Both the position numbers and the translations under genes were made by a program. The notes beneath the pieces were generated by a model. The model worked only from the letters and a program-made list of their open reading frames with translations. It ran no database searches and was not told the DNA's origin. A DNA stretch of 64,000 bases, taken from contig JAITKM010000007.1 of assembly GCA_031278395.1 (NCBI GenBank), positions 139,805 through 203,804 of the forward strand. Reading direction: 5' to 3'. Shown piece by piece: positions 22,404-44,404 of this stretch (the first letter of the stretch is position 1; every line of letters starts with the position of its first letter). The stretch comes from Deltaproteobacteria bacterium (GTDB lineage: Bacteria; Bdellovibrionota_C; UBA2361; SZUA-149; JAITKM01).

Positions 22404-22970
22404 ATGTCTCTAACTACTAAAAAGTCGCTTTTTCCGGGAAAAAAATTACTGCAACTAGAAAAAGGTAGAATTTTCTTTCCGAATAAGCCTAAAAATCAGC
22501 CTTATCAAAAACATACAGCAATGAAGCCGAAGCCAGCAACTAAATTGTTTTTTCAATGGTTGCAACCCTCTTATGCTAACGATGAGATTGAATTTGAGTG
22601 GAAAAGTTCGAAAATTTGTCCTTCTCCGCTTAGTGTTAAAATGTTTGTTTTCAATGATGTGGCAACTGGAGATAATTATCAATATCGCAAAAAAATTGTA
22701 GAACTTGTTATGAAGAACCCAAACAAGTTTTTTCTAGACAAGGAGACAAATGGTAACACTATTGTTTTTCCAGACCAATATTATATTGGTCAAGGTCCGG
22801 TGCGAGTAATTGATGATTTCTGTTTAGAAATTGAGGGAATTACTCACAGGCAGAAAGAACTTAGAGAGTTTATTCCTCCTAAACCAGTTTGGCCTAAAAC
22901 ATATGTAATTAATTTCGAAATCTTTGAATCAGATGAAGATCCAATGCTTAAGCAACTTAGTTTAAGATGA
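22404..22970 (+). CDS. Hypothetical protein
   Basis: ORF with an upstream AGGAGG-type RBS (aaggaggagataatg). Confidence 0.4.
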   Translation: MSLTTKKSLFPGKKLLQLEKGRIFFPNKPKNQPYQKHTAMKPKPATKLFFQWLQPSYANDEIEFEWKSSKICPSPLSVKMFVFNDVATGDNYQYRKKIVELVMKNPNKFFLDKETNGNTIVFPDQYYIGQGPVRVIDDFCLEIEGITHRQKELREFIPPKPVWPKTYVINFEIFESDEDPMLKQLSLR

Positions 22971-23138: not shown

Positions 23139-24473
23139 TTATGAACTAACTGCAAGGTTACGAAGCTGGGACAATAACTTAGCGTTGTCGGAATGCCCGG
23201 TCTTGACAGCCCGGATACGACCCTGAAGTGGACGACCTAATAAAAAGAAATCTCCAATTAAATCCAAAATCTTATGACGCGCCAGCTCTTCTGAGAACCT
23301 TAACTCTGTATTAATTACCCCATCATTGCCAATCAAAATAAAATTATTCAAACGCCCACCAGCAGCTAACCCAGCTTTTTGCAAATACTCAACCTCTTTC
23401 ATAAAACCAAAAGTCCGAGCTGGAGCAATATTTTCTTTAAAAGCCTGCGGCGAATTTAAATTAAACTCAAAATACTGCTTGCCTATCGGCGCTGGATAAT
23501 TCAGTTCATAACTAATTGTTAAACCTGCTGTCTCGCAAGGCTCAATCATAATATACTCGTCTTCGGGCGATCGCCCTAGATCATCCTTATTTTTCGTGCG
23601 ATATTCAAACGGCTGATCAATCTTTATTTCATACCACTCTCCACCCTGCTCCTCTATGCCAATACTCTCCAAGGCTTTACAAATTTCTACGGCTGAACCA
23701 TCAAAAATTGGCACTTCGTCATTACACTTAATCAGTAGGTTAGTGATTTTATAGGCATGCAAAGTCGCCATTAAATGCTCAATTGTTGAAACAGAACTCC
23801 GCTCCGAAGTAATGGTTGTCGCAAAACTTGTCGAATTTACATAATCTATAAAAACTGGAATTGTCTTAGGTTCGCCTATTTTCGCAAAATGTAGACCAGA
23901 ATTTAAAGGCAACGGTTCCAGCACTAAGCCACTTTTTTGTCCTGAATGTAGACACTGTCCATACATAATCAGGCTTTTAGCCAGCGTGCGCTGTCCAAGA
24001 TTTTTGCCTTTTAAGCCAGTTGATAAAACTCCAACATTTTTTAACACATCAATATTTAAATCATTTCCACTAAAATTTTTATTAGTCTTAGTTAGCGCAC
24101 GGTTAACCGAGAGTAAAATGCTATCTATATTAAAAGGTTTTTCTATAATATCAAAAGCACCGCGCCGTGTTGCCTCTAACGCATTGGAAATAGTCGCATG
24201 CCCGGAAATCATAATGACTTCTGTATCCGGTGAGATTTTTTTTATACACTCTAAAGTTTTAATCCCATCCCAACCAGACATCCAAATATCAAGAAAAATT
24301 AGGTCTGGATGATATTGCTTAACTTTTTCTAATGCTTCTTGCCCACTATTAGCGGTAATTGTTGCGTAATGTTCGTCCTCCAGCACGTTACATAATGCTG
24401 AACAAATACTAGTTTCATCATCAACTACCATGATTAAAATTTGAGTATTAGCTTTTAACTTTAAATTAGACAT
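23139..24473 (-). CDS. lpxC: Fusion protein: N-terminal CheY-like receiver domain plus UDP-3-O-acyl-N-acetylglucosamine deacetylase (LpxC)
   Basis: Residues 10-125 form a REC domain (VVDDE, phospho-acceptor D in LIFLDIWM, S in MISGH, K in EKPF). The rest is full-length LpxC (QRTLAKSL..GLH, STIEHLMATL, ARTFGFMKEVEYL, HKILDLIGD, TGHSDNAKLL) with the zinc-ligand and catalytic His/Asp/Glu positions conserved. Confidence 0.85.
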   Translation of the reverse strand: MSNLKLKANTQILIMVVDDETSICSALCNVLEDEHYATITANSGQEALEKVKQYHPDLIFLDIWMSGWDGIKTLECIKKISPDTEVIMISGHATISNALEATRRGAFDIIEKPFNIDSILLSVNRALTKTNKNFSGNDLNIDVLKNVGVLSTGLKGKNLGQRTLAKSLIMYGQCLHSGQKSGLVLEPLPLNSGLHFAKIGEPKTIPVFIDYVNSTSFATTITSERSSVSTIEHLMATLHAYKITNLLIKCNDEVPIFDGSAVEICKALESIGIEEQGGEWYEIKIDQPFEYRTKNKDDLGRSPEDEYIMIEPCETAGLTISYELNYPAPIGKQYFEFNLNSPQAFKENIAPARTFGFMKEVEYLQKAGLAAGGRLNNFILIGNDGVINTELRFSEELARHKILDLIGDFFLLGRPLQGRIRAVKTGHSDNAKLLSQLRNLAVSS

Positions 24474-24482
24474 AAAAATTTT

Positions 24483-24815
24483 TTATTTCCCAGTTGCGTG
24501 ATGTTTTTCTAAATCTTCTTTGGAATAACTATTGGCAATTTTTTCAGCCAGTTGGATATAATCAGACCACTCAACTGGCACACTACTATCTTCATAAATC
24601 GCCTCAACTGGACATTCTGGCTGACAGGCTCCGCAGTGTAAGCATTCATTGGGATTGATAAATAACATTCCATAATCGTCATCTTTGGGGGCTGGACGAC
24701 CAACTTTTTCATTTAAAGATTTGTCTGGATTATTGTAAAAGGCATCTGCTGGACAAACTTCACAACATGCTCTGTCTTTTTTTCCAATACAAGGTTCAGT
24801 AACGACGTAAGGCAT
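24483..24815 (-). CDS. Two-cluster ferredoxin (FdxA-like)
   Basis: Two Cys clusters (C..C..C...CP); it lies 9 bp upstream of the REC-lpxC gene and is probably co-transcribed with it. Confidence 0.75.
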   Translation of the reverse strand: MPYVVTEPCIGKKDRACCEVCPADAFYNNPDKSLNEKVGRPAPKDDDYGMLFINPNECLHCGACQPECPVEAIYEDSSVPVEWSDYIQLAEKIANSYSKEDLEKHHATGK

Positions 24816-25079: not shown

Positions 25080-26081
25080 ATGAAAAATAAGGGCTCAAAA
25101 ATATTATATAATCTAATTAAGATCTTGATTTTTCTAATTAGATTAATCCCGTCAAGACTTGCCTTAAGGTTGTCAGCTGCTAGTGGAAGAATTGTCGGTA
25201 AATTTTGTAAAGAAGAAATAGCAATTGCCAAAGCTCAACTGCAATTATTGTGTAACGTAAAGAAAACTAAAGTAGAGATTGCGCCAATCATCTCTGCCAA
25301 TTTTGCCCATATTGGTAAGACTGTCTACGAGTCACTAATTATTGACCGCCTGACAGAATTTAAAGACGGCATACAGGTTGCAAAATCCTTTTCTGAACAA
25401 CCCTACAAATACATTGAATTTTTAAATGACACCAAGGTCCTAGACCAAATCTTAGAAAATGATTCGTCGTGTATTATCCTGAGCGCCCATTTGGGTTGTT
25501 TTGAATTACTGGCAGCTTGCGCCGCCAAATTTGAAGTTAATCAAACTAAACGTAAGCTAATTGCCATTGGAAGAAATCCTAATTTTAGCGTGGCAGATTT
25601 AATCCTTAAAGATATCAGAGAGACATATGGCATGCAAACTATCTGGCGTAATGACCCACACGTTGGGGTGAAGTTGGCGCAACTTATAAAACAAAGAAAC
25701 TGGCTTGCAGTTTTAATTGACCAAGATATTAATTTAAAAAATCAGTTTTATCCGTTTTTGGGTCTGCCTGCAGCCTATCCAGTTGTGCCAATACGTTTGG
25801 CAGTCAAATATTCAATTCCTACTGTTTCGGCTTTTATTGTTAGACAAGATGCTTTTAAGTATTTGGTGTCAGTCAAACCGATTAAGTATGATTCCCAAAA
25901 AGAAACAGCTGTAACTCAGATTTTGTCAGCCTACACCCAACATTTAGAAAGTCTTTTGCTGGAATACCCGGAACAATGGGTGTGGTGGCATCGACGCTGG
26001 CGCAGACGCCCTGAAGGAGGAAAAATACGAACGACAGCTGAGTATTTGAAATGGTTAAAAACTATACAAGATAATTTATAA
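25080..26081 (+). CDS. Lipid A biosynthesis acyltransferase (LpxL/HtrB family)
   Basis: LPLAT/Lip_A_acyltrans architecture with an N-terminal membrane anchor and the HLGCFE region; divergent from the lpxC operon. Confidence 0.65.
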   Translation: MKNKGSKILYNLIKILIFLIRLIPSRLALRLSAASGRIVGKFCKEEIAIAKAQLQLLCNVKKTKVEIAPIISANFAHIGKTVYESLIIDRLTEFKDGIQVAKSFSEQPYKYIEFLNDTKVLDQILENDSSCIILSAHLGCFELLAACAAKFEVNQTKRKLIAIGRNPNFSVADLILKDIRETYGMQTIWRNDPHVGVKLAQLIKQRNWLAVLIDQDINLKNQFYPFLGLPAAYPVVPIRLAVKYSIPTVSAFIVRQDAFKYLVSVKPIKYDSQKETAVTQILSAYTQHLESLLLEYPEQWVWWHRRWRRRPEGGKIRTTAEYLKWLKTIQDNL

Positions 26082-30068: not shown

Positions 30069-30145
30069 GGTCCCGTAGCTCAGTTGGATAGAGCAACAGC
30101 CTTCTAAGCTGTGGGTCAGAGGTTCGAATCCTCTCGGGATCACCA
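30069..30145 (+). tRNA. tRNA-Arg (anticodon UCU), with CCA encoded
   Basis: Cloverleaf: acceptor ggtcccg/cgggatc, anticodon stem acagc/gctgt, loop ctTCTaa, T-loop ttcgaat, 3' a-cca. Confidence 0.9.
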
Positions 30146-30209
30146 GCTTTTTTTATTATTTACATCCCGTTTATCAACCGTTGACTTCACCCATATTCAT
30201 CTCCAGCTC

Positions 30210-30253
30210 AACAGATTATTAGTCTGTTGCTCTACCAACTGAGCTAATCGCCC
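30210..30253 (-). pseudogene. Second tRNA 5'-half fragment (minus strand); no T arm
   Basis: Minus strand reads gggcgattagctcagttggtagagca-acaga-ctaataa-tctgt, giving acceptor 5' strand, D arm and anticodon arm only. It is in inverted orientation relative to the intact tRNA-Arg. Confidence 0.4.
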
Positions 30254-30372
30254 ATAAAGATTTCCGAGTTTTTTTCTGAATCCATTTCAAAAACTTTTAT
30301 AAAAAGTTAAAAATTACTCGCAATATAAAAATTTATAAGCTAGTATGATAAGGAGTAAAAACGAGAGGAAGC

Positions 30373-31302
30373 ATGAACGCAAATCCGTCATATAAAGAAG
30401 AACTTTTAGTCTCTAGGCCCGTCTTAAAATGGGCGGGGGGTAAAGGTCAATTGCTGGAACAAATCACAGCTCGGTTGCCAAATAAACTTAAAGCTGGTGC
30501 TATTAAAAGATATATTGAACCATTTATTGGTGGTGGAGCTGTTTTTTTTGAAATAGCCAATACTTATTTTTTTAAAGAGGCCTTTTTATTTGATATCAAT
30601 CCGGAACTCGTTATTCTTTACAATGTTATCAAAAACGATGTCAAAAAATTGATTGATGAATTAGAGAATATTCAAGCGGCATATTATAGCTCCCAAGATA
30701 GAAACCTATACTACTATGACCGCCGGGATGAATATAACAAAAACAACAAATTTATTGATGCAAATAAGTATACTTCTGATTTTGTAAGGCGGGCGGCTTT
30801 AACCATTTTTTTAAATCGAACCTGTTTTAATGGACTTTTCAGAGTAAACAAAAAAGGGTTATTTAACGTTCCAGTGGGTCAGTATAAAAATCCAAAAATA
30901 TTAGATGCGGAAAACTTGTTGAATGTATCTGCCGTATTGCAAAATGCAATAATACACCAAGCTGATTTTGCTGTCGCACAAGAATACGCCAACAAAGATA
31001 CTTTTATTTATTATGATCCGCCATATCGGCCAGTTAGGGAAACGTCCAGTTTTAATTCGTATGCCGCCATTGATTTTGATGATGCGGAACAAGAGCGTTT
31101 ACATGATTTGTTTGTTGCGGTTGGGAATAAGAGTGCATTACAAATGCTTTCTAATTCTGACCCGACAAATTACATCTCCGATCCATTTTTTGATGATTTA
31201 TACAAAGGTTTTAAAATAAATCGGGTTATGGCAAAACGTCTTATCAATGCCAATGCTGATGGTCGTAACGAAATCCGCGAATTATTGATTACAAATTATT
31301 AA
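30373..31302 (+). CDS. Dam-like (alpha-class, D12) N6-adenine DNA methyltransferase; M1 of a DpnII/MboI-type R-M system
   Basis: PVLKWAGGKGQLL, motif I YIEPFIGGGAVFF, motif IV IYYDPPY. Confidence 0.85.
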   Translation: MNANPSYKEELLVSRPVLKWAGGKGQLLEQITARLPNKLKAGAIKRYIEPFIGGGAVFFEIANTYFFKEAFLFDINPELVILYNVIKNDVKKLIDELENIQAAYYSSQDRNLYYYDRRDEYNKNNKFIDANKYTSDFVRRAALTIFLNRTCFNGLFRVNKKGLFNVPVGQYKNPKILDAENLLNVSAVLQNAIIHQADFAVAQEYANKDTFIYYDPPYRPVRETSSFNSYAAIDFDDAEQERLHDLFVAVGNKSALQMLSNSDPTNYISDPFFDDLYKGFKINRVMAKRLINANADGRNEIRELLITNY

Positions 31303-31361
31303 AATTTTGTGTTGATTGTTATGTCTGGTTGAAGTATTATTTCTACAAACAGGAATAAAAA

Positions 31362-31703
31362 ATGAATAAATCTGAGTTATTAAAAGATATGACTGACAGC
31401 AAATTTACTATTATTGATGCTGTTGAGGTCGGTCACAAATATCGATTAGCGATATACAAAGGCACTAAAACCGAAAGCATATTTGATTTTGTTGTCAGAT
31501 ATCGTGAAAATTTTAATACTGGTTGGTCTCGTATCCGAACACCTAAGCATGTACACTGGATTGTGGATATTCTGATAAAACGTTCTCATGACCGTGAAGA
31601 AACCTTGCTTTTTGTAAGAGAGTTTGAAAAATTATGGAACTCCATAAAGCCAATAACAATTCAGGGGGAGCTGGATACCTTATTAAGCAGGTTATCGATT
31701 TAA
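31362..31703 (+). CDS. Hypothetical 113-aa protein inserted between the two methyltransferase genes
   Basis: ORF with an RBS (aggaataaaaaatg). It has no HTH-like controller-protein features and no recognisable domain. Confidence 0.4.
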   Translation: MNKSELLKDMTDSKFTIIDAVEVGHKYRLAIYKGTKTESIFDFVVRYRENFNTGWSRIRTPKHVHWIVDILIKRSHDREETLLFVREFEKLWNSIKPITIQGELDTLLSRLSI

Positions 31704-31869
31704 AGATTTCTCCCCACAGCATCAATGAAATCTGACCTCCATGATACAGAATTCTTGTTTAAAATGATGTATCTGATAATGGTTCAAGAAAAAACGAACG
31801 ACCCCACAGGAACTTTAACTAGTGGCATTATTTATAAGTTAAAACATCAAGAAGATTGGTTTGGTTTAT

Positions 31870-32653
31870 TATGAGCGTAAAACCATACAGACTTTATTGT
31901 GCTGACTGTCTGGAACAATTAAAAGAAATTCCAGAAAATACTTTTGATATGATATTCGCAGATCCGCCATATATGCTTTCAAACGGAGGCATAAGCTGTC
32001 AGAGTGGCAAAGTTGTTTCGGTTAACAAAGGTGGCTGGGATAAAAGCCAAGGCTTTGAAAAAGACTTTGAGTTTCACAAACAATGGCTTGAACTTTGCAA
32101 AAGAGTCTTAAAACCTCATGGAACGTTATGGGTTTCTGGAACCTATCACAGCATTTACTCTTGTGGCTTTGCGCTGCAATTGCTCGGATATCATATTTTG
32201 AATGATATTTCTTGGTTCAAACCGAATGCCAGCCCCAATATGTCCTGTCGGTATTTTACCGCCAGCCATGAAACTTTAATTTGGGTTAGAAAAGATAAAG
32301 ATAGCAAACATATCTTCAATTATGAAGCAATGAAGAATGGCAGTTTCCCAAAGGATTTTTTGAAAAAGGCGGATACTCAAATGCGCAGCGTATGGGCGAT
32401 TGGAACGCCAGCCATGTCCGAAAAATCTCATGGAAAACATCCCACACAAAAACCGATAGATTTATTGGAACGCATTATTTTAGCATCTACTAATCCCGGA
32501 GCTTTAATTTTAGATCCATTCATGGGGAGTGGCACGACCGGTGTCGCGGCCATAAAATTAGGCCGGAAATTTGTAGGCATTGAAAAAGAACAACTATTCA
32601 TTGAATTGGCAGAAAAAAGATTGTACGATGCAACTATAAGCGCTGGAGAATAA
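31870..32653 (+). CDS. Beta-class N6-adenine/N4-cytosine DNA methyltransferase (DpnA/M2-like)
   Basis: Motif IV DMIFADPPY lies near the N-terminus and motif I ILDPFMGSGTTGVAA near the C-terminus (beta permutation). The ORF track opens at a TTG (31856); the ATG at ~31870 (MSVKPY) is more likely. Confidence 0.8.
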
Positions 32654-32654
32654 T

Positions 32655-33566
32655 ATGAAGCAAAACCCATCTTTCCAAAAAATATTAAATTGCAAAACCA
32701 GTGATGACGTTTTTGAATGTTTGGTTTCTAACTTGAAGCAAACCATTAAATCTTGGGATTACTTTGTTAATTGGAGCAAGGTTATTAAAAATTACAGGGA
32801 TATTGAAACAAGGCTAAATATCCTCAATACGTTGATTGGCAAGTCTGATATCAAAAAAGAAGCTAAAGAGTTATTGAATAAATATCCAGAAATCATGCCT
32901 ATTGTTCCAGATCTTCTAGCTTATAGAGATAGACAGGTTAATATTCTTTCCGACTTTAAAACTTTTGGTTTTGAAAGCTATGATTTTTCAAAACCTATCA
33001 ATGTTGATAAAGCTGTAAAATTTTTGGATAAAAGCGGATTCCTTAAATTACTTTCGGATAGAAATATCAAATCCATACCGGATTATTTCATTGGTATAGG
33101 GGTTGGATTAGACAGTAATGGTCGCAAAAATCGTAGCGGAACAGCTATGGAGGACATTATCGAATTTTTTGTTAAAGATCTTTGTGATAGAAATGGGTTT
33201 GAATATATTACCCAAGCAACTGCGGATAAAATAAAATCAAAATGGGACAAGACTATTACTGTTAATAAATCCTCAAAGCGAATTGATTTTGCAATTAACA
33301 CTCCGGGAAAACTTTACCTAATTGAAACTAATTTTTATGACGGTGGTGGCTCTAAATTAAAATCGACAGCTGGAGAATATATTGATTCTTACAACCAATG
33401 GACAAACGATGGACATCAATTTATTTGGATTACAGATGGATCTGGCTGGAAATCCACAAGGGGACCGTTAAGAGATACTTTCGATGTGATTGATTACATT
33501 TTGAATATCGATATGGTTCAAAAAGGCATTTTGGAAAATCTAATTATAGAAAAGGATAAGGTGTGA
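32655..33566 (+). CDS. Type II restriction endonuclease, DpnII/MboI (GATC) family-like
   Basis: 303 aa; overlaps the stop of M2. Segments GIGVGLDSNGRKNRSGTAMEDI, YLIETNFYDGGGSKLKSTAGEY and WITDGSGW resemble the DpnII endonuclease family as I recall it; the M1-M2-R gene order matches DpnII/LlaDCHI. Confidence 0.55.
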   Translation: MKQNPSFQKILNCKTSDDVFECLVSNLKQTIKSWDYFVNWSKVIKNYRDIETRLNILNTLIGKSDIKKEAKELLNKYPEIMPIVPDLLAYRDRQVNILSDFKTFGFESYDFSKPINVDKAVKFLDKSGFLKLLSDRNIKSIPDYFIGIGVGLDSNGRKNRSGTAMEDIIEFFVKDLCDRNGFEYITQATADKIKSKWDKTITVNKSSKRIDFAINTPGKLYLIETNFYDGGGSKLKSTAGEYIDSYNQWTNDGHQFIWITDGSGWKSTRGPLRDTFDVIDYILNIDMVQKGILENLIIEKDKV

Positions 33567-34392
33567 GAAAAAATATTGATATCACAGAGCAAGAATATAA
33601 AACCACCATACAAAAATTCTATGAATATTTTGAAAATGGATATCTTTTTGAAAACTTCTTAAAATCGTTTTTAGACAAAATAGGACTTGATGAAATATCT
33701 GTTACTCAACGTTCTCGCGATGGAGGTTTTGATTTAAAAGCATCTCGCTTTGGTGTTGGAGGCTTTAGTGAAGCCGATGCAGTAAATTACTATGTACAAG
33801 CGAAGAAATGTTCTCCAGAACAACGTATATCTGTCAAAGCAATCAGAGAATTAAAGGGCCTTATTCCCTTCGGGCATAAGGGAATTTTTATTACAACTGC
33901 AAAATTTTCCGCTGATGCAGAAAAGGAATCGAATAACGATCCATCAAACCAGTTGTACTTATTGATGGAAAATCTCTTGTTAGCAGCTGTATAGATCATG
34001 AAATAGGTTTTACTTTTAAACCCATATTCAACAAAGCTGCTATGGATGAATTAAAGCAAATTCATTATCCCGAAACATCGGAAGCAGAAGCAAATGAGAA
34101 TGAAAATACACTCGTTGTGGAACGACAAATAACGCTAAACGACATGAGATCTAGAATATTTCCTATTCCCCGCCTAATAAAAGATAATATGCCAGAGGGT
34201 TTATCTAAAATGGATGTATATTTAGAGGATGGGTCAAAAATAACATTGTCTGTCGATAAAGCAGGCCGTTATTTAGCCGGCATAACTAAGCTCTATAAGA
34301 AAGAGGGCTTGATCTTAGAAGACGGAAGCTTTAATCCCAAAAAATCTATCTGGACGTTATCTTCTGGTGTATTAAAGATATCTTTTTCATAA
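33563..34392 (+). pseudogene. Mrr-like (Mrr_cat) restriction endonuclease gene interrupted by a frameshift
   Basis: ORF 33563..33994 carries the Mrr catalytic core (RDGGFDLKAS...YVQAKK...GIFITTAKFSADAE). The continuation (KPVVLIDGKSLVSSCIDHEIGF, the typical Mrr C-terminal block) lies in another frame running into ORF 34042..34392. The shift maps to an A-run near 33945. The start overlaps the REase stop (ATGA), suggesting translational coupling. Confidence 0.5.
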
Positions 34393-34620
34393 AATGGGCT
34401 TTATGCCAACAGATCTAAAAAACAATGTATGAGTTTTTCTAAACGCGCAATGAGTAAAAAAATGTGAAAATTTGCTTGTCGGGATAGCCACGACAAGTCA
34501 GATACATAAGGGAATATGTAAAATAAAAAATCCGTGCGAATTTATTGTTTTTATTGTTTTTCTAGCAAAAGTTGAATAGACTTCCTTAAACTGGATTTAG
34601 TGTAAAAAAAGGAAGAAGAA

Positions 34621-35526
34621 ATGCGGATAGCAGAGATTAAAATACGAAATTTTAGAAAACTTAAAGAAGTGGTGATAGATTTTCATTCTAAAAAAACCGT
34701 ATTTATTGGTGCAAACAATAGTGGAAAAACAAGCGCTATAACTGCTATGTGTTTATTTTTAGAAGATAACCAAAAATTCTCAACCTATGATTTTCCGTTA
34801 TCAAATCATCTAAAAGTCAATGAACTTTTTGAAAAAGAGGTCGAACCATCAAAACAAGAAGTGGATGGTGTTTTTCCCGCTCTTGATTTATGGTTTTATG
34901 TCGAAGACAAAGATATTCATCATGTAAGCCAGCTATTGCCTACATTAGATTGGACGGGTGGCGACTTAGGAGTTCGTTTGCGATATGAAATAAAAGATAT
35001 TGCTAAATTGTTTAGCGACTATAAAAGCGCTCGAGATAAAATCAAAGGTAAAAATGGCCTATTTCCAAAAGATATGATGGATTACCTTTCAAAAAATCTT
35101 TCCGACCATTTTGAAATTCGTCGTTATGTCCTCGACCCTGCCCAAAAGGCTAAAATCCAAACTCAAGAAACTTTGGGAGAAAAATTAGAAATTAACCCAC
35201 TAGATAACATTCTACGAATAAATACAATTAACGCGCAACGTGGTATGAGTGATGAAGTCGCAGACGCAAAACAATCAGAAAAACAAAAATTAACAGCGTT
35301 AATGACAAAGTATTACACTTCTCATCTTGATCCCAATACAGGAGAAATGACCGAAAAAGATATAAAGGCACTTGAAACATTAAACACGGCAACAGAAGAT
35401 TTTACTAAAAATATGAGAGCCAACTTCAAGCCAGCCTTGGAAGAAATTGCAAAAATTGGATACCCACCTTTTGGAGCACCGGATATTACTATCAACCTTA
35501 TTATATCTACCTTATCAAACAGATAA
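34621..35526 (+). CDS. AAA/ABC-type ATPase N-terminal fragment (OLD/AAA_15-like); probable remnant of a defence gene
   Basis: MRIAEIKIRNFRKL...VFIGANNSGKTSAI (Walker A); 301 aa with no signature motif, Walker B or nuclease domain before the stop. Confidence 0.45.
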   Translation: MRIAEIKIRNFRKLKEVVIDFHSKKTVFIGANNSGKTSAITAMCLFLEDNQKFSTYDFPLSNHLKVNELFEKEVEPSKQEVDGVFPALDLWFYVEDKDIHHVSQLLPTLDWTGGDLGVRLRYEIKDIAKLFSDYKSARDKIKGKNGLFPKDMMDYLSKNLSDHFEIRRYVLDPAQKAKIQTQETLGEKLEINPLDNILRINTINAQRGMSDEVADAKQSEKQKLTALMTKYYTSHLDPNTGEMTEKDIKALETLNTATEDFTKNMRANFKPALEEIAKIGYPPFGAPDITINLIISTLSNR

Positions 35527-35625
35527 GGTGTTCCATGATATAAAGTTAATACACTATCCGACAAATTACTCTTTTTGTTGGCGTTGTTGTATAAAAAGTA
35601 TTTTGATTTAGTTTAATTTAGACAA

Positions 35626-35784
35626 TTATGAAATTTTGCTTTCTTTATAAACTACGTGTTTGCGAACAACTGGATCATATTTTTTAAGTTCTAATTTTTC
35701 TGTTTTGCCTTTTTTATTTTTGGCAGTTGTATAAAAATGTCCAGTTTTTGCAGAAGATACTAATTTGATTAAATCTCTTGGCAT
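35626..35784 (-). CDS. rpmG: 50S ribosomal protein L33
   Basis: The minus-strand ORF translates to [52 protein letters not shown] (52 aa), a close match to bacterial L33. It is below the ORF-track length cutoff. Confidence 0.8.
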
Positions 35785-35878
35785 AATAATTTACCTTTAG
35801 AATAAAATTAAATAAAAAATGAAAGCGCTTTGATAGCAACTTACTGATATTATTGCAAACCTGTTTGTAAAAATATTA

Positions 35879-36097
35879 CTAATTAGTATATTTCTTTAAT
35901 TCTTTGTCTAAATCATCAAAACTTTTTCCAGAGATAGTATCTAGTTCATCAACTATATTGTCTTCGGCGAAGAACCAATTATAATAAGAAATGGCAATGA
36001 CAATTATTATAAAAGCCACGACTAATATTATAGCTCTACTAGCTATCTGAGAATTAGAAGGATATTTAATGCCTAAATCATTTGTTTTGTTTTCCAT
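35879..36097 (-). CDS. Hypothetical small membrane protein (72 aa, one TM helix)
   Basis: ORF with a hydrophobic core AIILVVAFIIIVIAISYY. Confidence 0.3.
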   Translation of the reverse strand: MENKTNDLGIKYPSNSQIASRAIILVVAFIIIVIAISYYNWFFAEDNIVDELDTISGKSFDDLDKELKKYTN

Positions 36098-36550
36098 ATT
36101 AATTACTTAAAATAAACAGAAAAGTTTATATTTTTAGCCTAACAACAGCCGGGAGGCAAATAATATAAATTAACTTTGATTACAAGATGCTTTTAAAAAA
36201 TTGAATGTTTTCGAGTTTTCGATAAATAAAATAGTTATAGCCTGCGTTGTTGGATTTATAATCTAATTTAAAATATAGACTTGTGCTTTTAGGGTCGCAA
36301 ACATATCTCTCCGTCATTTAACTTAACCTCAAGTTGTTTGACGTTAACCCGTTAGCTAATAACTCCTATAACTATTGTGTTATATTTGCCATTTGACTAA
36401 AAATATTTGCCTATTATTTTAATAGCTTATTTATTGTTTTTTATAACTACCTAATTTTATTAGTTTTTAAAAAAATAATACATGGTCACAAAAAAATATA
36501 ATTCATGTATAAGAGTTTTGAAGTTTATTGATAACTTGAATAGGTATTTT

Positions 36551-37180
36551 ATGAAAAATTTATTACTTTTTGCAATATTAACAGTTTTTATTAGTTTTCC
36601 GAGCCATTCAAGTGCATATGTTTATAGCTATAATAAAAACTATAATACTAATAATAGTGCGATTTATTCAAAAAAGACAACGGCTTATAATAATATTTAT
36701 AACCCTCTTAGAAAACATTCAAACATTCCAAGTTTAAGATCTGTTAATCCATATGAAGCAAGGCGAATTGATTATGTGCTGAAACAAGAAAAATATTTTA
36801 GGGATTTAGCTTTGGCTGAAGCTAGAGCCGACGCTAATTATGCAAAAAGGAGATTAATTAGGCAGGAAAAAGAACGTAGAGTAGAAGAACAAGCTAAAAG
36901 ACGTTTAGTTAGAAATCAGCAACTAGCCGCTAAAAATAATAAAAACAAGGTGAAAACTGACCAATTATTATTGGCTGACAAAAAATTGCTTTTGGACAAA
37001 AAGGATAAAAAGAACTTAGAAGTTGTCAAGAGTTCTGATTTTAATATGATTTCTGACTCATTAGAACAAAATGCAGATTATAAATATATTCCCAAAAAAC
37101 AGGAAAAAGTCGTTTTGGCAACAACCGAACAGCCTTCATTTTTTCAACGTTTAAGATGGGCGTTATTTGGTAGAAATTAA
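36551..37180 (+). CDS. Hypothetical secreted, highly charged protein
   Basis: Signal peptide MKNLLLFAILTVFISFPSHSSA, then a K/R/E-rich coiled region. The ORF track opens at 36482; the ATG at 36551 gives a canonical signal peptide. Confidence 0.4.
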   Translation: MKNLLLFAILTVFISFPSHSSAYVYSYNKNYNTNNSAIYSKKTTAYNNIYNPLRKHSNIPSLRSVNPYEARRIDYVLKQEKYFRDLALAEARADANYAKRRLIRQEKERRVEEQAKRRLVRNQQLAAKNNKNKVKTDQLLLADKKLLLDKKDKKNLEVVKSSDFNMISDSLEQNADYKYIPKKQEKVVLATTEQPSFFQRLRWALFGRN

Positions 37181-37269
37181 AAACATTTTTCGTAAAAAAT
37201 ATAAAACCTATTAAAATTCCAAATAGCAGAGTTCAATAAGACCTCTGCTATTTTTTTTGTGTAAAATCA

Positions 37270-37947
37270 ATGGCAATTCCTAAAAATATTTGCTTTTTTG
37301 TAATTTTTTATTTTTTTCTAGCTCCCCCCCTATCAGCGGCAGAAAATAAAGGGGTTTATAAATATATTCGTGAGGACGGCGAGGTAATTTATACTACAAC
37401 GCCACAGAACAAAGGTGACCTTCCTGAACAATTACCTGAAATAAAAAAGGAGAATTTAACTTCCAAAGTTGAGAACCTGAAGCAAAATACTCCACGGACT
37501 TGTGAAGATCATGGAGGTATTAATTGCCAAGCTGGAGCTGGAGTTGAGAAAAACGTAATTTGTCATGATGGCTGGACTCAAGCAGAAATCCCTTATCGTT
37601 TAGCTTGTGTTAATGTTGTGTTAAAAATTATTAACACTAGTTTGGTTGGGCAAGATGGACAAATTATGGATTATGATAAAAAAAAGAATATCCTAGATGA
37701 AATTAAGCTAAAACGCGCTACAGCTGTGCAATTTACGGTTAGAAACAATAATACAGTTAAGGCTAAAGATGTCTTGCTCGCGCTGCAAATTTCACGGAAT
37801 GAAAAGATTACCGCGCTAGGTAGCAACTATATTGAGCCATATGCTGTCGAAGATTATATTTTTCCTATTGCTGAGTTTCTTAAACAACCTAAACTCAAAT
37901 ATTTTAACACTGGCTTAATTAAATTAGAGTGTTCAAATTGTATGTAG
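37270..37947 (+). CDS. Secreted protein with a DUF4124-like N-terminal domain
   Basis: Signal peptide, then VYKYIREDGEVIYTTTPQ, which resembles the DUF4124 motif. Confidence 0.4.
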   Translation: MAIPKNICFFVIFYFFLAPPLSAAENKGVYKYIREDGEVIYTTTPQNKGDLPEQLPEIKKENLTSKVENLKQNTPRTCEDHGGINCQAGAGVEKNVICHDGWTQAEIPYRLACVNVVLKIINTSLVGQDGQIMDYDKKKNILDEIKLKRATAVQFTVRNNNTVKAKDVLLALQISRNEKITALGSNYIEPYAVEDYIFPIAEFLKQPKLKYFNTGLIKLECSNCM

Positions 37948-38088
37948 GTACATAGATGAGATAAAAGAGATGTATGCGGCAAAGTAAAATGCCGAGAAAA
38001 TTCTCAGGTATACACGCCGCCGTCGCAGGAAGAACTCGAAAATTACACAGGGATAACCCTATTACTTCATTTCAGCAGTCCAGACATC

Positions 38089-38340
38089 CGCCAGATTCTC
38101 CGCCTGCTTTATAACAAGCTCTATTGCGGCGGGCTGTTTGTCCGGCGGATAGCCATATTTATTAAGTATCCTTTGGACGCTGACCATAATGCGGGCGCGG
38201 AGCTGTCTCTTTGATGGCAAAGTCAATGGTCGCGTTTTTTCTGACCTTGTCCGCTATCTTGCGGACGATTTCCCGAGGCTGCCCTTATTCCATAAAGTCG
38301 AGTGGTTGCCCGTTCAGCGTTGACTTTACCTCTCTCCACA
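38089..38340 (-). pseudogene. hsdR: hsdR (Type I restriction subunit) C-terminal remnant with frameshifts
   Basis: Minus-strand frames give ...LNKYGYPPDKQPAAIELVIKQAENLADVWTAEMK* and, after a shift, REIVRKIADKVRKNATIDFAIKETA, matching the HsdR C-terminal domain; the N-terminal ~90% is missing. Confidence 0.5.
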
Positions 38341-38375
38341 TTGGCATATATTTATCCATTAAAGCGACAAACTTT

Positions 38376-38831
38376 TTATTGTGCTTTTTTCTCAACAAGG
38401 TGAACTAATTCGTGGATAACGACGTATTCGAGGCTTTCCGGCGTTTTCTTGGCAAGCTGTGTGTTCAGCCTATTTTTCCTGTGTTTGTGTTGCTCGTTCC
38501 CCAACGGGTGGTCATGTATTTGGTTTGCCACGTTGAAGTGCGCGTTATCTATAATCCCTCGGAGGTTGTTCGCCTCGGCAAGGCGGGCGATGACTTTATC
38601 CATTTCTTCGCCGATGTTCTTATTGCCGATAAGCGCAAGCATATCATCAAAACTCCCGCCTTCGGGAACGTCGATGTCGCCGTATGCCACGCCTTTGAAC
38701 TTGTCCGACACATACTTCACGAACAAAAGCGTCAGTATGTAATCTTTGTATTGTGAACTGTCCATGCCGCCGCGCAAGCTGTCGCAGCTTACCCAAAGGC
38801 TTGAATAGAGTTCACTTTTCTTGACCGCCAT
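38376..38831 (-). pseudogene. hsdM: In-frame chimera of an HsdM N-terminal domain (~100 aa) and a DUF45/YgjP-like metallohydrolase C-terminus
   Basis: N-terminus MAVKKSELYSSLWVSCDSLRGGMDSSQYKDYILTLLFVKYVSDKF matches HsdM_N; C-terminus PESLEYVVIHELVHLVEKK matches the DUF45 HExxH region; the methyltransferase catalytic domain is absent. Confidence 0.55.
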
Positions 38832-39108: not shown

Positions 39109-39516
39109 TTAATTTACTGTTTGCAGCGAAACATTACTGCCGCCGGATTGGTTGATGACTTCCATAACTGAAACAAGTTGTTGTGTAGTAGAGCTCCGCT
39201 CCGCTTGTAACAGGATAGCTTGTTGCGGGTCTGTGTTTAATTGTCTAGTTAACTGCTTTTTTAATTCGGCTAAGTTAATCGGGGATTTATTGAAAAAAAT
39301 ACTACCATCCTTAGTAACGGAAATAACTAAGACACTTTTTTTATTCATCTCAATTGTATTCTGTGATTCTGTTTGGGGTAAATCAAGCTTAAGCCCCTGT
39401 AGATCAATAAATGAACTGGTAACCGAAAAAAACAACAGCAATAAAAACACTACGTCAATTAGTGGCGCCATGGTAATTTCTGGTTTTATTTTATGAGGAT
39501 TGGTAAACTTCAACAT
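39109..39516 (-). CDS. ExbD/TolR-family protein
   Basis: 135 aa with an N-terminal TM (PLIDVVFLLLLFF) and a periplasmic domain. Confidence 0.75.
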   Translation of the reverse strand: MLKFTNPHKIKPEITMAPLIDVVFLLLLFFSVTSSFIDLQGLKLDLPQTESQNTIEMNKKSVLVISVTKDGSIFFNKSPINLAELKKQLTRQLNTDPQQAILLQAERSSTTQQLVSVMEVINQSGGSNVSLQTVN

Positions 39517-40133
39517 GACTTAAAGTATATAATAATTCTGGTAACATTATTTTTCATCAGTGCTTTGCATTTTTCAATCTCAGTATCCAAATAGTAATAA
39601 ACTACCGTGTAAGGAATAGCGATAATTAAACCAAACGCTGTAGTTAAAAGCGCTTTCCAAATGCCTCCACCCAACAAAGCCGGATTAATTTGATTGCCCG
39701 CTATCTCAATTCCACGAAAAACGTCAATCATACCTAATACCGTGCCTAACAAACCAAGCAAAGGACTAAGTGTAATAATAGTAGCTAACAACCGCAGCCA
39801 CGAATTAAGCGCGCCCACAAGATTAGCGCCGACACGTTCAAGCTCAATTTCTATATCTGGAGCTGATAATTTATTAGCGGAACAAAGCTTTGTCGCAACT
39901 TCCATAATACTTGCCACTGGTGAAGGAGTTAATTTTAAATTGTTTAAGGCAAGCGCCAGGTCCTTATTTTCTAAAGCGTTAAAAAATAAATCAGCAAAGT
40001 GCGTATCACTCAATTTTAATTTTTTAAACTCAAAAAGCTTGTAAAGAGTAAGCGCCAGCGCCACGATTGAGCAAAGCAACAGCGGATACATGACCCATCC
40101 GCCTCTAGTTAAATATTCAATTAAAAGTGCCAT
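39510..40133 (-). CDS. MotA/TolQ/ExbB-family proton channel
   Basis: Three TM helices and the conserved C-terminal block GLLGTVLGMI. The ATG at 40133 (MALLIEYL) is preferred over the ORF-track start at 40211. Confidence 0.75.
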   Translation of the reverse strand: MALLIEYLTRGGWVMYPLLLCSIVALALTLYKLFEFKKLKLSDTHFADLFFNALENKDLALALNNLKLTPSPVASIMEVATKLCSANKLSAPDIEIELERVGANLVGALNSWLRLLATIITLSPLLGLLGTVLGMIDVFRGIEIAGNQINPALLGGGIWKALLTTAFGLIIAIPYTVVYYYLDTEIEKCKALMKNNVTRIIIYFKSC

Positions 40134-40498
40134 AAAGTTAGATTTTTTAAGCGGACAAAATCGCGCGAGGTTTTCCGAGAGTGTGAAATGAACCGCTGCG
40201 AATTTTGGCACGCTCCTATAAATTTTGCTAAGAACTACGCGACAGGCGGGGAGTTAGCACATTAGTTTAATTTTGGCACTGCTTTTGCTTATTAGAGTCG
40301 AGGTAGAAAATTAAGAAATAAAAAATAAATAATATTATGAAGAATTAATCTAATATTAATAGCTAATTATGGAAGAAAAAAAGGTTTTAAATTGGAATTT
40401 TTGATTTTTAATAAAATAAGTTTTTGCCTTTTAGTGTCGGTTTTTTGACAAAATTATTTCGACTCTAGGTTTAAAATGACATTTTTTGGAACTTTAAT

Positions 40499-41269: not shown

Positions 41270-42028
41270 ATGGATAGAGGTATATATACATCAACATCTG
41301 GTGGCATGGTTGCAGAAAGACGCATTGAGATTGTGAGTAACAATCTCGCCAACGTCAATACAGCTGGTTTTAAAGGTCAACGAATTGTTTCCAGACAACA
41401 AGAATTTGCCGATACTTTAGCTAGCGTAATTGCTACAACTCCAAACTATGCGCAATCAGAACACGCTTATACGCCTGGCGTGGTTGATATCACAGCCGAA
41501 ACAGATTTTTCCAGCGGACCTATTAATCATACTGGTAACCCCTTAAATGTAGCCTTAGGTGAAGCGGATGGTTTTTTTGTAGTGCAAGTTGGCGATGAAG
41601 AACGTTACACGCGGGCAGGAAGTTTTACGCTCAATGCTAATCGTGAGCTGGTAACTGCCGATGGTCAACATGTTTTAGGTGCTGACGGTATTATAACTTT
41701 GCCAGCCACAGGTAAAGCTTCCATTTCCGAAAATGGAACAGTTCTTGCGGGAGAACAGGTTGTTAGCAAACTCCGAGTAGTTAAAGTTACGGATAAAGCG
41801 CTGCTAGAAAGAATAGACGGCACAAGATTTAAGTTTAGCGGGGACGGAGAAACTACAGAAATGCCAGAATATCGGTTAGCTACTGAATCTTTGGAAATGC
41901 CTAATGTTTCAACAGTTAGCTCAATGGTTGAGCTAATTAGCGCGTCGCGAACCTTTGAGGCGTATACCAAAACAGTCAAAACTATTGATGAAATAAATGA
42001 ACGAGTTACTAAATTAGTCAGAGGCTGA
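41270..42028 (+). CDS. flgF: Flagellar basal-body rod protein FlgF
   Basis: N-terminal rod motif SGGMVAERRIEIVSNNLANVNTAGFK and a C-terminal rod domain. Confidence 0.7.
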   Translation: MDRGIYTSTSGGMVAERRIEIVSNNLANVNTAGFKGQRIVSRQQEFADTLASVIATTPNYAQSEHAYTPGVVDITAETDFSSGPINHTGNPLNVALGEADGFFVVQVGDEERYTRAGSFTLNANRELVTADGQHVLGADGIITLPATGKASISENGTVLAGEQVVSKLRVVKVTDKALLERIDGTRFKFSGDGETTEMPEYRLATESLEMPNVSTVSSMVELISASRTFEAYTKTVKTIDEINERVTKLVRG

Positions 42029-42056
42029 GGTAATTATAAATAAGGAATAAAAAATT

Positions 42057-42848
42057 ATGCTTAGATCATTATATATTGGCGCAACTGGGATGATAGCTCA
42101 ACAACTTAGTTTGGACGTTGTTGCTAATAACTTAGCTAATGCTAATACCACTGGATACAAGAAAGGACGCGCAGATTTTCAAGACTTAATGTATCAAATT
42201 GTGCAAGAGCCGGGAACTACTGCTAATCAAGCCGGCACAGGTCCAACAGGTATTCAAGTTGGTCTGGGTGTGCGTCCAGCCGCAGTAGGAAAAATTTTTA
42301 CCCAGGGCGATTTTCAATCAACTAATAATCCTCTGGATGTCGCTATTGAAGGTGACGGATTTTTCCAGATAACACTGCCGAATGGCGAATCTGCTTATAC
42401 TAGATCAGGAGCTTTTAAAATTAACGAAGATGGTTATTTAACAACTGCGGAAGGCTATTTAGTTGAACCAAATATTGCCCTGCCCGCAGATACTTTAGAA
42501 ATTACAATTTCTGCAGCTGGGACTGTCGCGGTTAGTCAGCCTAATGCTAGCGCTTTAAATACGGTTGGAGAATTGCAGGTTGCAAGATTCCAAAATCCCG
42601 CGGGCTTACGGGCTATAGGCAAAAATTTATTTCAAGAAACTGAATCTTCAGGAGCGCCAACACTGGCTGTGCCTGGTGAAGATGGTAGCGGAACTTTAGC
42701 GCAAAGGTTTTTGGAAGGTTCAAATGTAAGTGTTGTAGAAGAAGTTGTGCAAATGGTTACTAGTCAACGAGCATATGAAGCTAATTCAAAAGTGATTCAA
42801 ACCGCCGATCAAATTTTGCAATTAGCGCTTAATTTAAAGAGGTCTTAA
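42057..42848 (+). CDS. flgG: Flagellar distal rod protein FlgG
   Basis: MLRSLYIGATGMIAQQLSLDVVANNLANANTTGYKK and the C-terminal QRAYEANSKVIQTADQIL. Confidence 0.85.
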   Translation: MLRSLYIGATGMIAQQLSLDVVANNLANANTTGYKKGRADFQDLMYQIVQEPGTTANQAGTGPTGIQVGLGVRPAAVGKIFTQGDFQSTNNPLDVAIEGDGFFQITLPNGESAYTRSGAFKINEDGYLTTAEGYLVEPNIALPADTLEITISAAGTVAVSQPNASALNTVGELQVARFQNPAGLRAIGKNLFQETESSGAPTLAVPGEDGSGTLAQRFLEGSNVSVVEEVVQMVTSQRAYEANSKVIQTADQILQLALNLKRS

Positions 42849-42852
42849 TTAT

Positions 42853-43476
42853 ATGGATTATTTAACTAATTATTTAATGAAATGGTTTTTATTTGGAATT
42901 ATTTTGTTAATTCCAGCTTTAGTTTTGGCTGAAGAAGATCGACGTCTAATTGTCTCTATTCCGCAACAGGTGGAAGTCGGCTGTGAACAGGTTACGTTAG
43001 GAGAAATTGCTGAGATAATTTATAAAACTGACGCGCAAATTGATTTAGCTTCTAGGCTGGCAGAATTAAATCTTGGCATTGCACCGCAGCCCCAAATTAC
43101 TAAGCAGCTTGCCGGTGAGGAAATTTTAAAGAGCATTGAGGCAATTGGAATTTCACGCAATGCTATTGGTTATAGTATTCCGCAACAAGTTAGTATCAAG
43201 AGAGTTAATAAAAAATTAGACTTTGAAGTTGCTAAGCCTAGTAACAATCAAGCTAATAAGCTTAACCCCAAAGCCGATAAAGTTGCGCCTTTAATTGTTA
43301 AAGGTAAGCCAATTAACGTGTTGTATAAGGATGGGTTGCTTTCGGTTATGTTAAGCGGCACTGCCTTGGGGGCAGCTGATAAAAATGAAGTTTTAATGGT
43401 TAAAAATACTAAATCTCATAAGGTGATTAAAACTAAAGTTATTAATTCAGAGTTAGCAGAGGCGCTAGTTGAGTAG
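42853..43476 (+). CDS. flgA: Flagellar P-ring assembly chaperone FlgA
   Basis: Signal peptide, SAF-like C-terminal domain, and position between flgG and flgH. Confidence 0.7.
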   Translation: MDYLTNYLMKWFLFGIILLIPALVLAEEDRRLIVSIPQQVEVGCEQVTLGEIAEIIYKTDAQIDLASRLAELNLGIAPQPQITKQLAGEEILKSIEAIGISRNAIGYSIPQQVSIKRVNKKLDFEVAKPSNNQANKLNPKADKVAPLIVKGKPINVLYKDGLLSVMLSGTALGAADKNEVLMVKNTKSHKVIKTKVINSELAEALVE

Positions 43477-43519
43477 ACTGTGTAGCATAGCTAATTGTGG
43501 CTATGTTCAAAGGAAAGAT

Positions 43520-44392
43520 ATGAAAAGCATAAATTTAATTTTAGTGTTGTTGCTAGGTTCCGCCTGTTCGCTAGGCAATACAGATGATAAATTCCATTAT
43601 GGCGCTGTCCCAGCCCGATCTTTTGCAAAATCAGTTCATGCTGGGCAGAATAAAGATTTTTCTGTGTATTTAGCTTTAAATGAAAATTCTGGATTGAATA
43701 CCGCAGAGCAGCCCAGCCAAGATACTAAAAGTTTAATGAATATTGCTATGCCGCTAGCAAACTATGTTGGTCAGCAATATGCTGGTGACCCATATGCTGA
43801 CCCGCTAGCAGATCCAAGGCAGGTTAAAAATCCATCTTTGTGGACGGATGATGGTAATACATATGGAATGTTTCGAGATTTAAGAGCCTATCAACCGATG
43901 GATGTAGTAACGGTGTTAATTCGTGAAAATAATTTTGGTAAGAAAAAAGCCGATACTAAAACAGATAGCAAGTTTAGTATTTCAGCTGGAATTGCCGCTT
44001 TATTTGGATTGGAGAAAAAGGTTGAAAGCGTGATGCCGTCTGATTTTAATGCCAATTCAATGGTGGACGCTACGACCAATAGTAAATTAGACGCTAAGGG
44101 CGAGACTAAGCGTGAAGGTTCGCTGACGGGGACGATTTCAGCGGTTATTATGGAGGTTCTGCCAAACGGTCTGATGCGCATTGAAGGTTCAAAAATTATC
44201 AGCATGAATGCAGAAGAAGAGATTATGGTGATTAGTGGGTTAGTTAGGCAGCGCGATATTAATGCTGAGAATAGTATTGATTCGAGTAGAATCGCTAATA
44301 TGCGGATAGATTTTTATGGTAAAGGCACACTGGGAGAGATTCAGGAACCGGGCTGGTTGTATGGGTTTTTAAAGAAAATAATGCCATTTTAA
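43520..44392 (+). CDS. flgH: Flagellar L-ring lipoprotein FlgH
   Basis: Lipobox LLGSAC and the FlgH motif DVVTVLIREN. The ATG at 43520 with aaggaaag is preferred over the ORF-track start at 43469. Confidence 0.85.
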   Translation: MKSINLILVLLLGSACSLGNTDDKFHYGAVPARSFAKSVHAGQNKDFSVYLALNENSGLNTAEQPSQDTKSLMNIAMPLANYVGQQYAGDPYADPLADPRQVKNPSLWTDDGNTYGMFRDLRAYQPMDVVTVLIRENNFGKKKADTKTDSKFSISAGIAALFGLEKKVESVMPSDFNANSMVDATTNSKLDAKGETKREGSLTGTISAVIMEVLPNGLMRIEGSKIISMNAEEEIMVISGLVRQRDINAENSIDSSRIANMRIDFYGKGTLGEIQEPGWLYGFLKKIMPF

Positions 44393-44404
44393 AGACAGAT
44401 TAAG

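Follow-up and report, generated by a model that had tools for sequence, protein, structure and literature searches.

The 64-kb window analysed here, the whole stretch from position 139,805 to 203,804 of contig JAITKM010000007.1 (assembly GCA_031278395.1, Deltaproteobacteria bacterium), encodes at 23139..24473, on the minus strand, a 444-amino acid (aa) protein in which a response regulator receiver domain (REC) precedes LpxC, the committed enzyme of lipid A synthesis. LpxC is an essential enzyme that controls flux through lipopolysaccharide (LPS) synthesis, and it is a major antibiotic target. The gene is an uninterrupted open reading frame (ORF) that matches the Pfam models Response_reg and LpxC and scores above the cut-off of TIGR00325. 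Its product has three parts according to Pfam: the receiver (aa 14-122), a 38-aa linker, and a full LpxC domain (aa 161-437). An initial annotation, made from the letters of the DNA, had proposed this two-domain architecture, and profile scores over the curated thresholds of Pfam and NCBIfam bear it out. The fusion is thus a response regulator with an enzymatic output. It is highly probable that the window protein consists of a receiver derived from NtrX and a genuine LpxC. The fusion is uncharacterized, rather than unseen: the pair of Pfam domains is visible in database annotation.

The chance that an assembly or gene-calling artefact has joined two genes here is negligible. A protein identical to the window fusion is called in the NCBI assembly and again in a separate Logan assembly, which excludes a frameshift or stop artefact in the linker, the place where the initial annotation had thought that two genes might yet prove to be separate. 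The survey of related genomes that it had also suggested recovers the same uninterrupted REC-LpxC ORF in at least 77 other species. Both Pfam domains occur in 120 of the best 120 clusters (at 90% identity) from a search of 5.8 billion proteins, with 53-73% identity and lengths of 430-500 aa. A scan of GTDB species representatives finds relatives in 147 genomes, and the best 80 of these match at full length, over residues ~14-440. The loci of these best 80 matches supply the 77 distinct proteins on which all orthologue statistics below are based. Promoter-like sites around the gene do not exceed those of shuffled sequence (13 vs 10.4 +/- 3.4), and an Rfam scan of the window returns two tRNAs only, with no regulatory RNA near the fusion gene.

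The LpxC deacetylase domain (23163..23993, minus strand) is supported by Pfam, by TIGR00325, and by alignment to Pseudomonas aeruginosa LpxC. PF03331 matches aa 161-437 with 262.2 bits (E 7e-78, cut-off 27) over profile positions 1-266 of 268, and the NCBIfam equivalog model TIGR00325 gives 229.3 bits against a curated cut-off of 187.25. Alignment to the solved P. aeruginosa enzyme, together with motif positions, assigns H233, H400, and D404 as the zinc ligands (H79, H238, and D242 in Escherichia coli), and E232, H427, T354, K401, and D408 as predicted catalytic residues (E. coli E78, H265, T191, K239, and D246), while F355 corresponds to E. coli F192. The view that the LpxC part is of full length and has all of its metal-binding and catalytic residues therefore stands, and all nine catalytic residues are unchanged in 77/77 distinct orthologues. 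The protein has no extended C-terminal tail; only 7 residues follow the domain, and the TIGR00325 match stops at position 270 of 297. In an AlphaFold2 (AF2) model built from a 26-sequence alignment (mean predicted local distance difference test score, pLDDT, 83.9; predicted template-modelling score 0.72), Foldseek superposes the LpxC half on the LpxC structures of P. aeruginosa, E. coli, and Aquifex aeolicus with template-modelling scores (target) of 0.83-0.92 and root-mean-square deviations of 1.7-2.4 Å over ~285 columns. The window protein thus shares its fold, zinc ligands, and catalytic residues with these stand-alone enzymes, but differs from them in the 160 aa of N-terminal REC and linker, in lacking a C-terminal tail of the degron type, and in belonging to a distinct subclade. 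The LpxC fusion already described, LpxC-FabZ (NF009667), likewise has LpxC covalently joined to a second domain, but there the partner is C-terminal and metabolic (a dehydratase), whereas here it is a signalling domain. The window protein reaches 179.4 bits for NF009667 against a cut-off of 465, through its LpxC part only, and no FabZ domain is found in it.

Two residues set the fused enzymes apart. Gly182 (nt 23928-23930) is present in 43 of 44 fused LpxC domains, in a column that separates them from stand-alone LpxC, and Lys249 (nt 23727-23729) is present in 42 of 44, where stand-alone enzymes mostly have Glu. These differences would suit a paralogue with another substrate or role, beside a separate canonical lpxC that does the housekeeping. 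Such a paralogue is very unlikely, given a score above the TIGR00325 equivalog cut-off with the full catalytic set, vertical inheritance of the gene beside the housekeeping genes purA, infB-rbfA-truB, and mreB, and the failure of a profile scan and of tblastn with the fusion to find a second LpxC in the 64-kb window.

The receiver (24108..24434, minus strand) matches Response_reg, PF00072, over aa 14-122 with 99.1 bits (E 2e-28, cut-off 30.2). Its best curated family in NCBIfam is NtrX, at 115.6 bits through the REC part only (the cut-off of the NtrX equivalog, NF051870, is 600), and its matches in the PDB include A. aeolicus NtrC4 and the receiver entries 4d6x and 5m7n. The AF2 model shows five strands alternating with five helices over residues 13-130, mostly at pLDDT >90, which is the (beta-alpha)5 fold. 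The initial annotation considered the receiver intact, and alignment finds every one of the residues in question, namely the acidic pair D18/D19 (24417-24422), the phospho-acceptor D62 (24288-24290), S90 (24204-24206), and K112 (24138-24140), all on the minus strand. These five are unchanged in 77/77 distinct orthologues at 45-73% identity, and across all architectures of the family D62 is kept in 36 of 37 representatives and K112 in 38 of 39. The phospho-acceptor pocket is under strict purifying selection. The highly conserved alpha4-beta5-alpha5 segment of REC reads 'SGHATISNALEATRRGAFD(F/I)IEKP'; at its aromatic switch position, 109, 73 of 77 orthologues have Phe and the window protein alone has Ile.

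The linker (aa 123-160; 23994..24107, minus strand), as delimited from the AF2 model and the orthologue alignment, consists of the end of helix alpha5, a disordered stretch at 133-142 (pLDDT below 50), and then a clade-conserved motif, modelled as a helix (147-150) and a strand (155-158) that packs on the first LpxC strand. At 49 aa, the spacing from K112 to Q161 is the shortest among the 77 (range 49-89).

Relationship to NtrX-type regulators

An exhaustive phmmer search for distant family members, against 1.84 billion representatives at 50% identity, finds more distant REC-LpxC proteins (38-60% identity) as well as proteins of 650-736 aa that match the fusion in two separate stretches. The latter are composed, according to Pfam, of Response_reg, Sigma54_activat, AAA_lid_14, and LpxC, while one family member of 491 aa is composed of Response_reg, HTH_8, and LpxC. 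Pfam finds no Sigma54_activat, AAA_lid, or HTH_8 in the window protein; the AAA+/lid or HTH_8 modules that it lacks are present in the relatives P0124, P0126, P0130, P0141, and P0136, where an AAA+ module, a Fis-type helix-turn-helix (HTH), or both take the position of the linker. The longer proteins carry the Fis-type HTH between the AAA+ lid and LpxC. Since REC, AAA+, lid, and HTH all precede LpxC, these long forms show the complete NtrC/NtrX-type domain order, followed by LpxC. A GAFTGA loop is missing from their AAA+ modules, almost none of which retains the Walker B Glu, and several show erosion of Walker A or the HTH; the long forms are thus NtrX-like and degenerating. IMG annotates them as NtrX. 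The conserved motif of the window's linker was considered as a remaining tail of the Fis-type HTH, joined at an 'RxTL' microhomology, and this was rejected because the long forms hold a complete HTH and, in addition, a separate spacer of ~15 residues before LpxC.

A simple neighbour-joining tree of the LpxC domain (106 sequences, 62 of them stand-alone LpxC, without bootstrap) places the fused forms all together, apart from the 62 stand-alone enzymes, with REC-only forms nested repeatedly among REC-AAA+ forms. For none of the 44 fused LpxC domains is the nearest neighbour a stand-alone LpxC. The identities of REC-only/REC-AAA+ pairs reach 83%, 75%, 70%, and 63%, against a mean of 56% among REC-AAA+ forms themselves, and the window's LpxC domain averages 49% identity to long forms compared to 38% (maximum 43%) to stand-alone LpxCs. 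Nearest neighbours that are always fused, along with such high identities between REC-only and REC-AAA+ forms, argue for one origin followed by repeated loss of modules. The parsimonious reading of these comparisons, well supported though not proven, is that an entire NtrX-like gene became fused to lpxC once, in an ancestor, and that AAA+ and HTH were deleted independently several times thereafter. In each case REC survived the loss of the other regulator modules, and the family records how a transcription factor was reduced, step by step, to a pure regulator of an enzyme. The gene in the window is a minimal REC-LpxC derivative of the ancestral NtrX-like fusion.

The NtrX::LpxC family, of which the window gene is a reduced member, spans multiple phyla. 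The GTDB relatives carry the labels Bdellovibrionota, Bdellovibrionales, Oligoflexia, and "Deltaproteobacteria", with others from Ca. Deferrimicrobium/Deferrimicrobiaceae, Syntrophorhabdaceae, and Ca. Dadabacteria. By the names of their sources, the long forms (REC-AAA+-LpxC) come from Nitrospinota and from "Deltaproteobacteria" metagenome-assembled genomes (MAGs), and the REC-HTH-LpxC forms from Nitrospinota and Ca. Entotheonellia. A complete genome from Spirochaetota encodes a short REC-LpxC.

Gene neighbourhoods and candidate kinases

Upstream of the fusion gene, on the same strand, is an ORF for an FdxA-like dicluster ferredoxin of 110 aa (24483..24815, minus strand), which matches Fer4 families in Pfam and scores below the cut-off of the FdxA models in NCBIfam; it stops 9 bp before the fusion begins. 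Divergent from this fdx/REC-lpxC pair, across a 264-bp spacer, is a gene for an LpxL-like late acyltransferase of lipid A (25080..26081, plus strand; PF03279, 101 bits). The ORF list and Pfam confirm both positions, from which the initial annotation had drawn the suggestion of a redox or two-component input into LPS biogenesis. A 188-aa ORF convergent with REC-lpxC (22404-22970) has no match in Pfam or NCBIfam, and is also called in the Logan assembly.

Clustering of the neighbour genes over the 77 loci gives three neighbourhood types, which track the phylogeny of the fusion protein. Type A, the clade of the window (about 25 loci), has the order [glycosyltransferase]-fdx-purA-REC-lpxC, behind which lie a pair of small unknown genes and one for a Crp-family regulator. 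Type B (about 22 loci) has infB-rbfA-nrnA-truB-purA-REC-lpxC, followed by (hbd) and mreB. Type C, a sister clade, is monophyletic, comprising 18 Bdellovibrionota species whose fusions are 57-99% identical (loci L034, L037-L039, L046, L052, L054, L055, L057, L064, L070, L071, L075, L076, L078, and L083-L085). The gene purA is directly upstream of REC-lpxC in 39 of the 77 loci, and within the window's clade it separates fdx from REC-lpxC in 20 of 22. Direct contact of fdx with REC-lpxC is seen in only two of those 22, the window and one other, and the neighbourhoods of other clades have no fdx. As purA normally intervenes, the contact seen in the window results from loss or relocation of purA, and we read it as a relic of synteny and not as functional coupling. 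The ferredoxin is accordingly rejected as a functional or redox partner, and the redox input that it had suggested is not supported. The lpxL adjacency occurs only in the window genome and in none of the related loci compared, so it too is rejected as a conserved LPS cluster. Of the initial interpretation, the two-domain architecture and its standing as a new regulatory arrangement are upheld, and the part built on ferredoxin and lpxL is not. A redox input is conceivable only indirectly, as the title of a reference listed in a 2025 review of lipid A regulation in the Journal of Biological Chemistry (PMC12444477) reports NtrY as a redox sensor in Brucella.

The initial annotation saw no cognate histidine kinase in the window, and a Pfam scan and tblastn agree. 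None of the 48 window ORFs of at least 150 aa contains a histidine kinase (HisKA/HATPase_c) or a second REC, and tblastn of the 64-kb window with kinases (NtrY included) and with the fusion finds nothing further. A different arrangement is seen in the four long or intermediate forms whose loci were sampled (a Nitrospinota contig, an Entotheonellia-type contig, and two "delta" MAGs). In 4/4 of these the fusion is directly downstream of a DUF4390 gene and a kinase of 730-777 aa, whose architecture is NtrY_N-HAMP-PAS-HisKA-HATPase_c in three and HAMP-PAS-HisKA-HATPase_c, with no NtrY_N match, in the fourth. With DUF4390 and an NtrY-type kinase directly upstream, the fusion fills the ntrX slot of an ntrYX operon. 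The ancestral partner kinase of the NtrX::LpxC family is NtrY, and the adjacency was lost in the short forms. The relatives that a profile search with the four NtrY sequences finds come mainly from Nitrospinota and "delta" MAGs, and the 3.9-Mb genome of Ca. Nitronauta litoralis is among their sources. As a separate observation, two ntrY-ntrX::lpxC loci from different lineages (L087 9594-10881; L088 10126-11483) have, after the fusion, a Formyl_trans_N gene and lolA, for the outer-membrane lipoprotein carrier, which hints at a conserved envelope-related operon.

Type C loci have a kinase of another kind. Pfam shows an HDOD gene and a transmembrane-PAS-HisKA-HATPase_c kinase, divergent from and adjoining REC-lpxC, ~1-2.5 kb upstream, and an FHA-domain gene and a PLD-type cardiolipin synthase are usually nearby. 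The HDOD/PAS-kinase pair is a candidate for a dedicated signalling module of the fused LpxC. The kinase was considered as a truncated NtrY; its core is only 24% identical, which marks it as a different partner. In two species of Ca. Deferrimicrobium, REC-lpxC is followed after 35 bp by a gene for a periplasmic-binding-like protein with a signal peptide, which overlaps the start of a transmembrane-PAS kinase gene (L080 2224-5971; L073 650-3163). These look like one operon, which was set aside as general evidence because it is restricted to two closely related species.

Phosphorylation as a control of LpxC

Control of LpxC, as covered in the 2025 review (PMC12444477), includes proteolysis by FtsH/LapB/YejM, activation by MurA in P. 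aeruginosa, Lon in some alphaproteobacteria, Ght in Neisseria, and transcription of lpxC under NtrYX and ChvGI. The words "fusion", "fused", "receiver", and "response regulator" do not occur in it. A full-text literature search, with most subscription journals outside its coverage, likewise finds no description of a REC-LpxC or NtrX-LpxC protein. This agrees with the initial annotation, which knew of no direct phospho-control of LpxC: neither the search nor the review mentions any. In Rhodobacter sphaeroides, deletion of ntrYX raises lpxC mRNA 8.8-fold and raises LPS, and lpxC has no NtrX binding site (PMC7240162), and the effect of NtrYX on lpxC expression and LPS level is covered in PMC12444477 also. 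An NtrC-type regulator of Desulfovibrio vulgaris has lpxC as its single target, and in Syntrophobacter fumaroxidans lpxC adjoins the operon of the orthologous regulator (PMC3333781). The link of NtrX/NtrC-type regulators to lpxC is therefore already known at the level of transcription, and it is the covalent form that is new. The family resembles NtrY/NtrX systems in the best curated match of its REC, in the full NtrX domain order (with AAA+ lacking GAFTGA) of its deeper members, and in their position downstream of DUF4390 and NtrY. It differs in that the window protein has no AAA+, HTH, or adjacent ntrY, and in that known NtrX acts on lpxC transcription, indirectly, whereas here the receiver is part of the enzyme.

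The pocket of the receiver has stayed unchanged through the losses of AAA+ and HTH and after separation from ntrY, which makes phospho-control through Asp62 its most likely function. On balance, we favour the reading that phosphorylation of Asp62 sets LpxC output post-translationally. An unlinked histidine kinase, NtrY-like or a PAS kinase like that of type C, would phosphorylate Asp62. The mechanism we prefer would resemble that of CheB: the unphosphorylated REC would restrain the catalytic domain, and phosphorylation would change access to the active site, possibly through dimerization of REC on its alpha4-beta5-alpha5 face. The reasons for this preference are the flexible linker and the fact that LpxC is a hydrolase that works as a monomer. 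CheB, in which phosphorylation of the REC relieves autoinhibition, is the source of the analogy; it shares with the window protein the order of N-terminal REC, flexible linker, and C-terminal hydrolase, but the output domains are not homologous. A parallel in pathway logic is reported in PMC12802240, where a single-domain response regulator activates the initiating phosphoglycosyl transferase of exopolysaccharide synthesis. In that system, too, a receiver would act directly, independently of transcription, upon the enzyme of the first committed step in the making of an envelope glycoconjugate, but the two are separate proteins of another pathway, whereas the window's receiver is fused and concerns lipid A.

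Several points weigh against phospho-control through Asp62. The linker between the domains is predicted by AF2 to be disordered, and the Ile at switch position 109, unique among the 77, could weaken coupling. Neither the window's clade (type A, about 25 loci) nor the infB-truB-purA clade (type B, about 22 loci) has a kinase near the gene. A profile search finds no NtrY on contigs with Bdellovibrionota short forms, but the word index of that search restricts its reach, so that absence does not follow from it. The lack of a linked kinase in the window's clade and the Ile, as well as the clear decay of the neighbouring AAA+ and HTH modules, could also mean that REC has no regulatory role and is left over from evolution, or that it is only a structural appendage. 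That is extremely unlikely. Although the 77 sequences differ at roughly half of their positions, all 77 share the five pocket residues, and each loss of the middle module left REC in place; this is not the behaviour of a decaying domain.

REC might instead control the abundance of LpxC, as a phosphorylation-dependent degron or as a site where a protease or adaptor docks, in place of the FtsH/LapB or Lon routes found elsewhere. The prevailing form of LpxC control known to date is regulated proteolysis, through FtsH/LapB in E. coli and, as proposed, Lon in alphaproteobacteria (PMC12444477). The window LpxC, moreover, lacks the extended C-terminal tail, and a gene with a LON_substr_bdg domain is immediately upstream of a short REC-lpxC in Spirochaetota (AP019861.1, L089 7015-9284). 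That Lon-domain neighbour is a single observation, and none of the three neighbourhood types has a protease or adaptor gene conserved beside the fusion. We regard control of abundance as unlikely, though it is plausible and the main rival; sequence alone cannot separate control of abundance from control of activity.

Signalling could also run in reverse, with LpxC sensing its substrate or precursors of lipid A and modulating the phosphorylation of REC, so that within an NtrY-type pathway the fusion would provide feedback or act as a sink for phosphate. The fusion does fill the ntrX slot, and the long forms keep a Fis-type HTH, so that a transcriptional output coexists with the enzyme and DNA binding would be what is tuned. 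The window protein, with neither HTH nor AAA+, has LpxC as its sole possible output, and unchanged catalytic residues argue for catalysis over ligand sensing alone. Reverse signalling thus appears quite unlikely.

If phosphorylation does act on LpxC output, a receiver built into the enzyme would add a fourth, direct phospho-switch to proteolysis, MurA activation, and transcription, in several little-studied phyla. More tentatively, the family may represent a switch of outer-membrane biogenesis that is independent of transcription and proteolysis in Bdellovibrionota, Nitrospinota, Entotheonellia, and several former deltaproteobacterial lineages, and may act as a "Rosetta stone" for a partnership of NtrYX with lpxC. 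The ancestry of the fusion bears on the puzzling rise of lpxC expression and LPS in alphaproteobacteria that have lost NtrYX; were the Rosetta stone reading true, that effect would reflect an old and direct functional partnership. The NtrY encoded right beside NtrX::LpxC in the long forms makes a concrete, testable pair.

Other genes in the window

Between parA/parB (13148-14934) and a RepA/TrfA-like plasmid-type replication initiator (10868-12364, minus strand) that faces them is an AT-rich spacer with four iteron-like copies of TTATTYCAAAACACG (12609-13109). This replication module shares the contig with the housekeeping genes argS, tkt, glyA, and ddl and with the fused lpxC, and it could be that of a chromid or secondary replicon, or else an integrated plasmid module. 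Further along, a tRNA-Arg (30069-30145) is followed by a DpnII-type cassette (30373-33566) of a D12 Dam-like methylase, an N6_N4 methylase, and the DpnII endonuclease. Beyond the cassette are an AAA_15 ATPase (34621-35526), unannotated ORFs, and a 151-aa HsdM_N/YgjP-like fragment (38376-38831). The region from 30069 to 38831 looks like an island integrated at the tRNA.

An ORF for a GH57 glycoside hydrolase and one for a glycogen-synthase-like glycosyltransferase (47537-50057) overlap by 95 bp as listed, and the GTG start of the downstream gene was probably set too early. A flagellar rod/ring cluster (41270-45511) with flgF/G-like genes, flgA, flgH for the L-ring, and flgI for the P-ring is found along with a MotA/ExbB-family gene (39510-40211), in keeping with a flagellated diderm whose outer membrane contains LPS.

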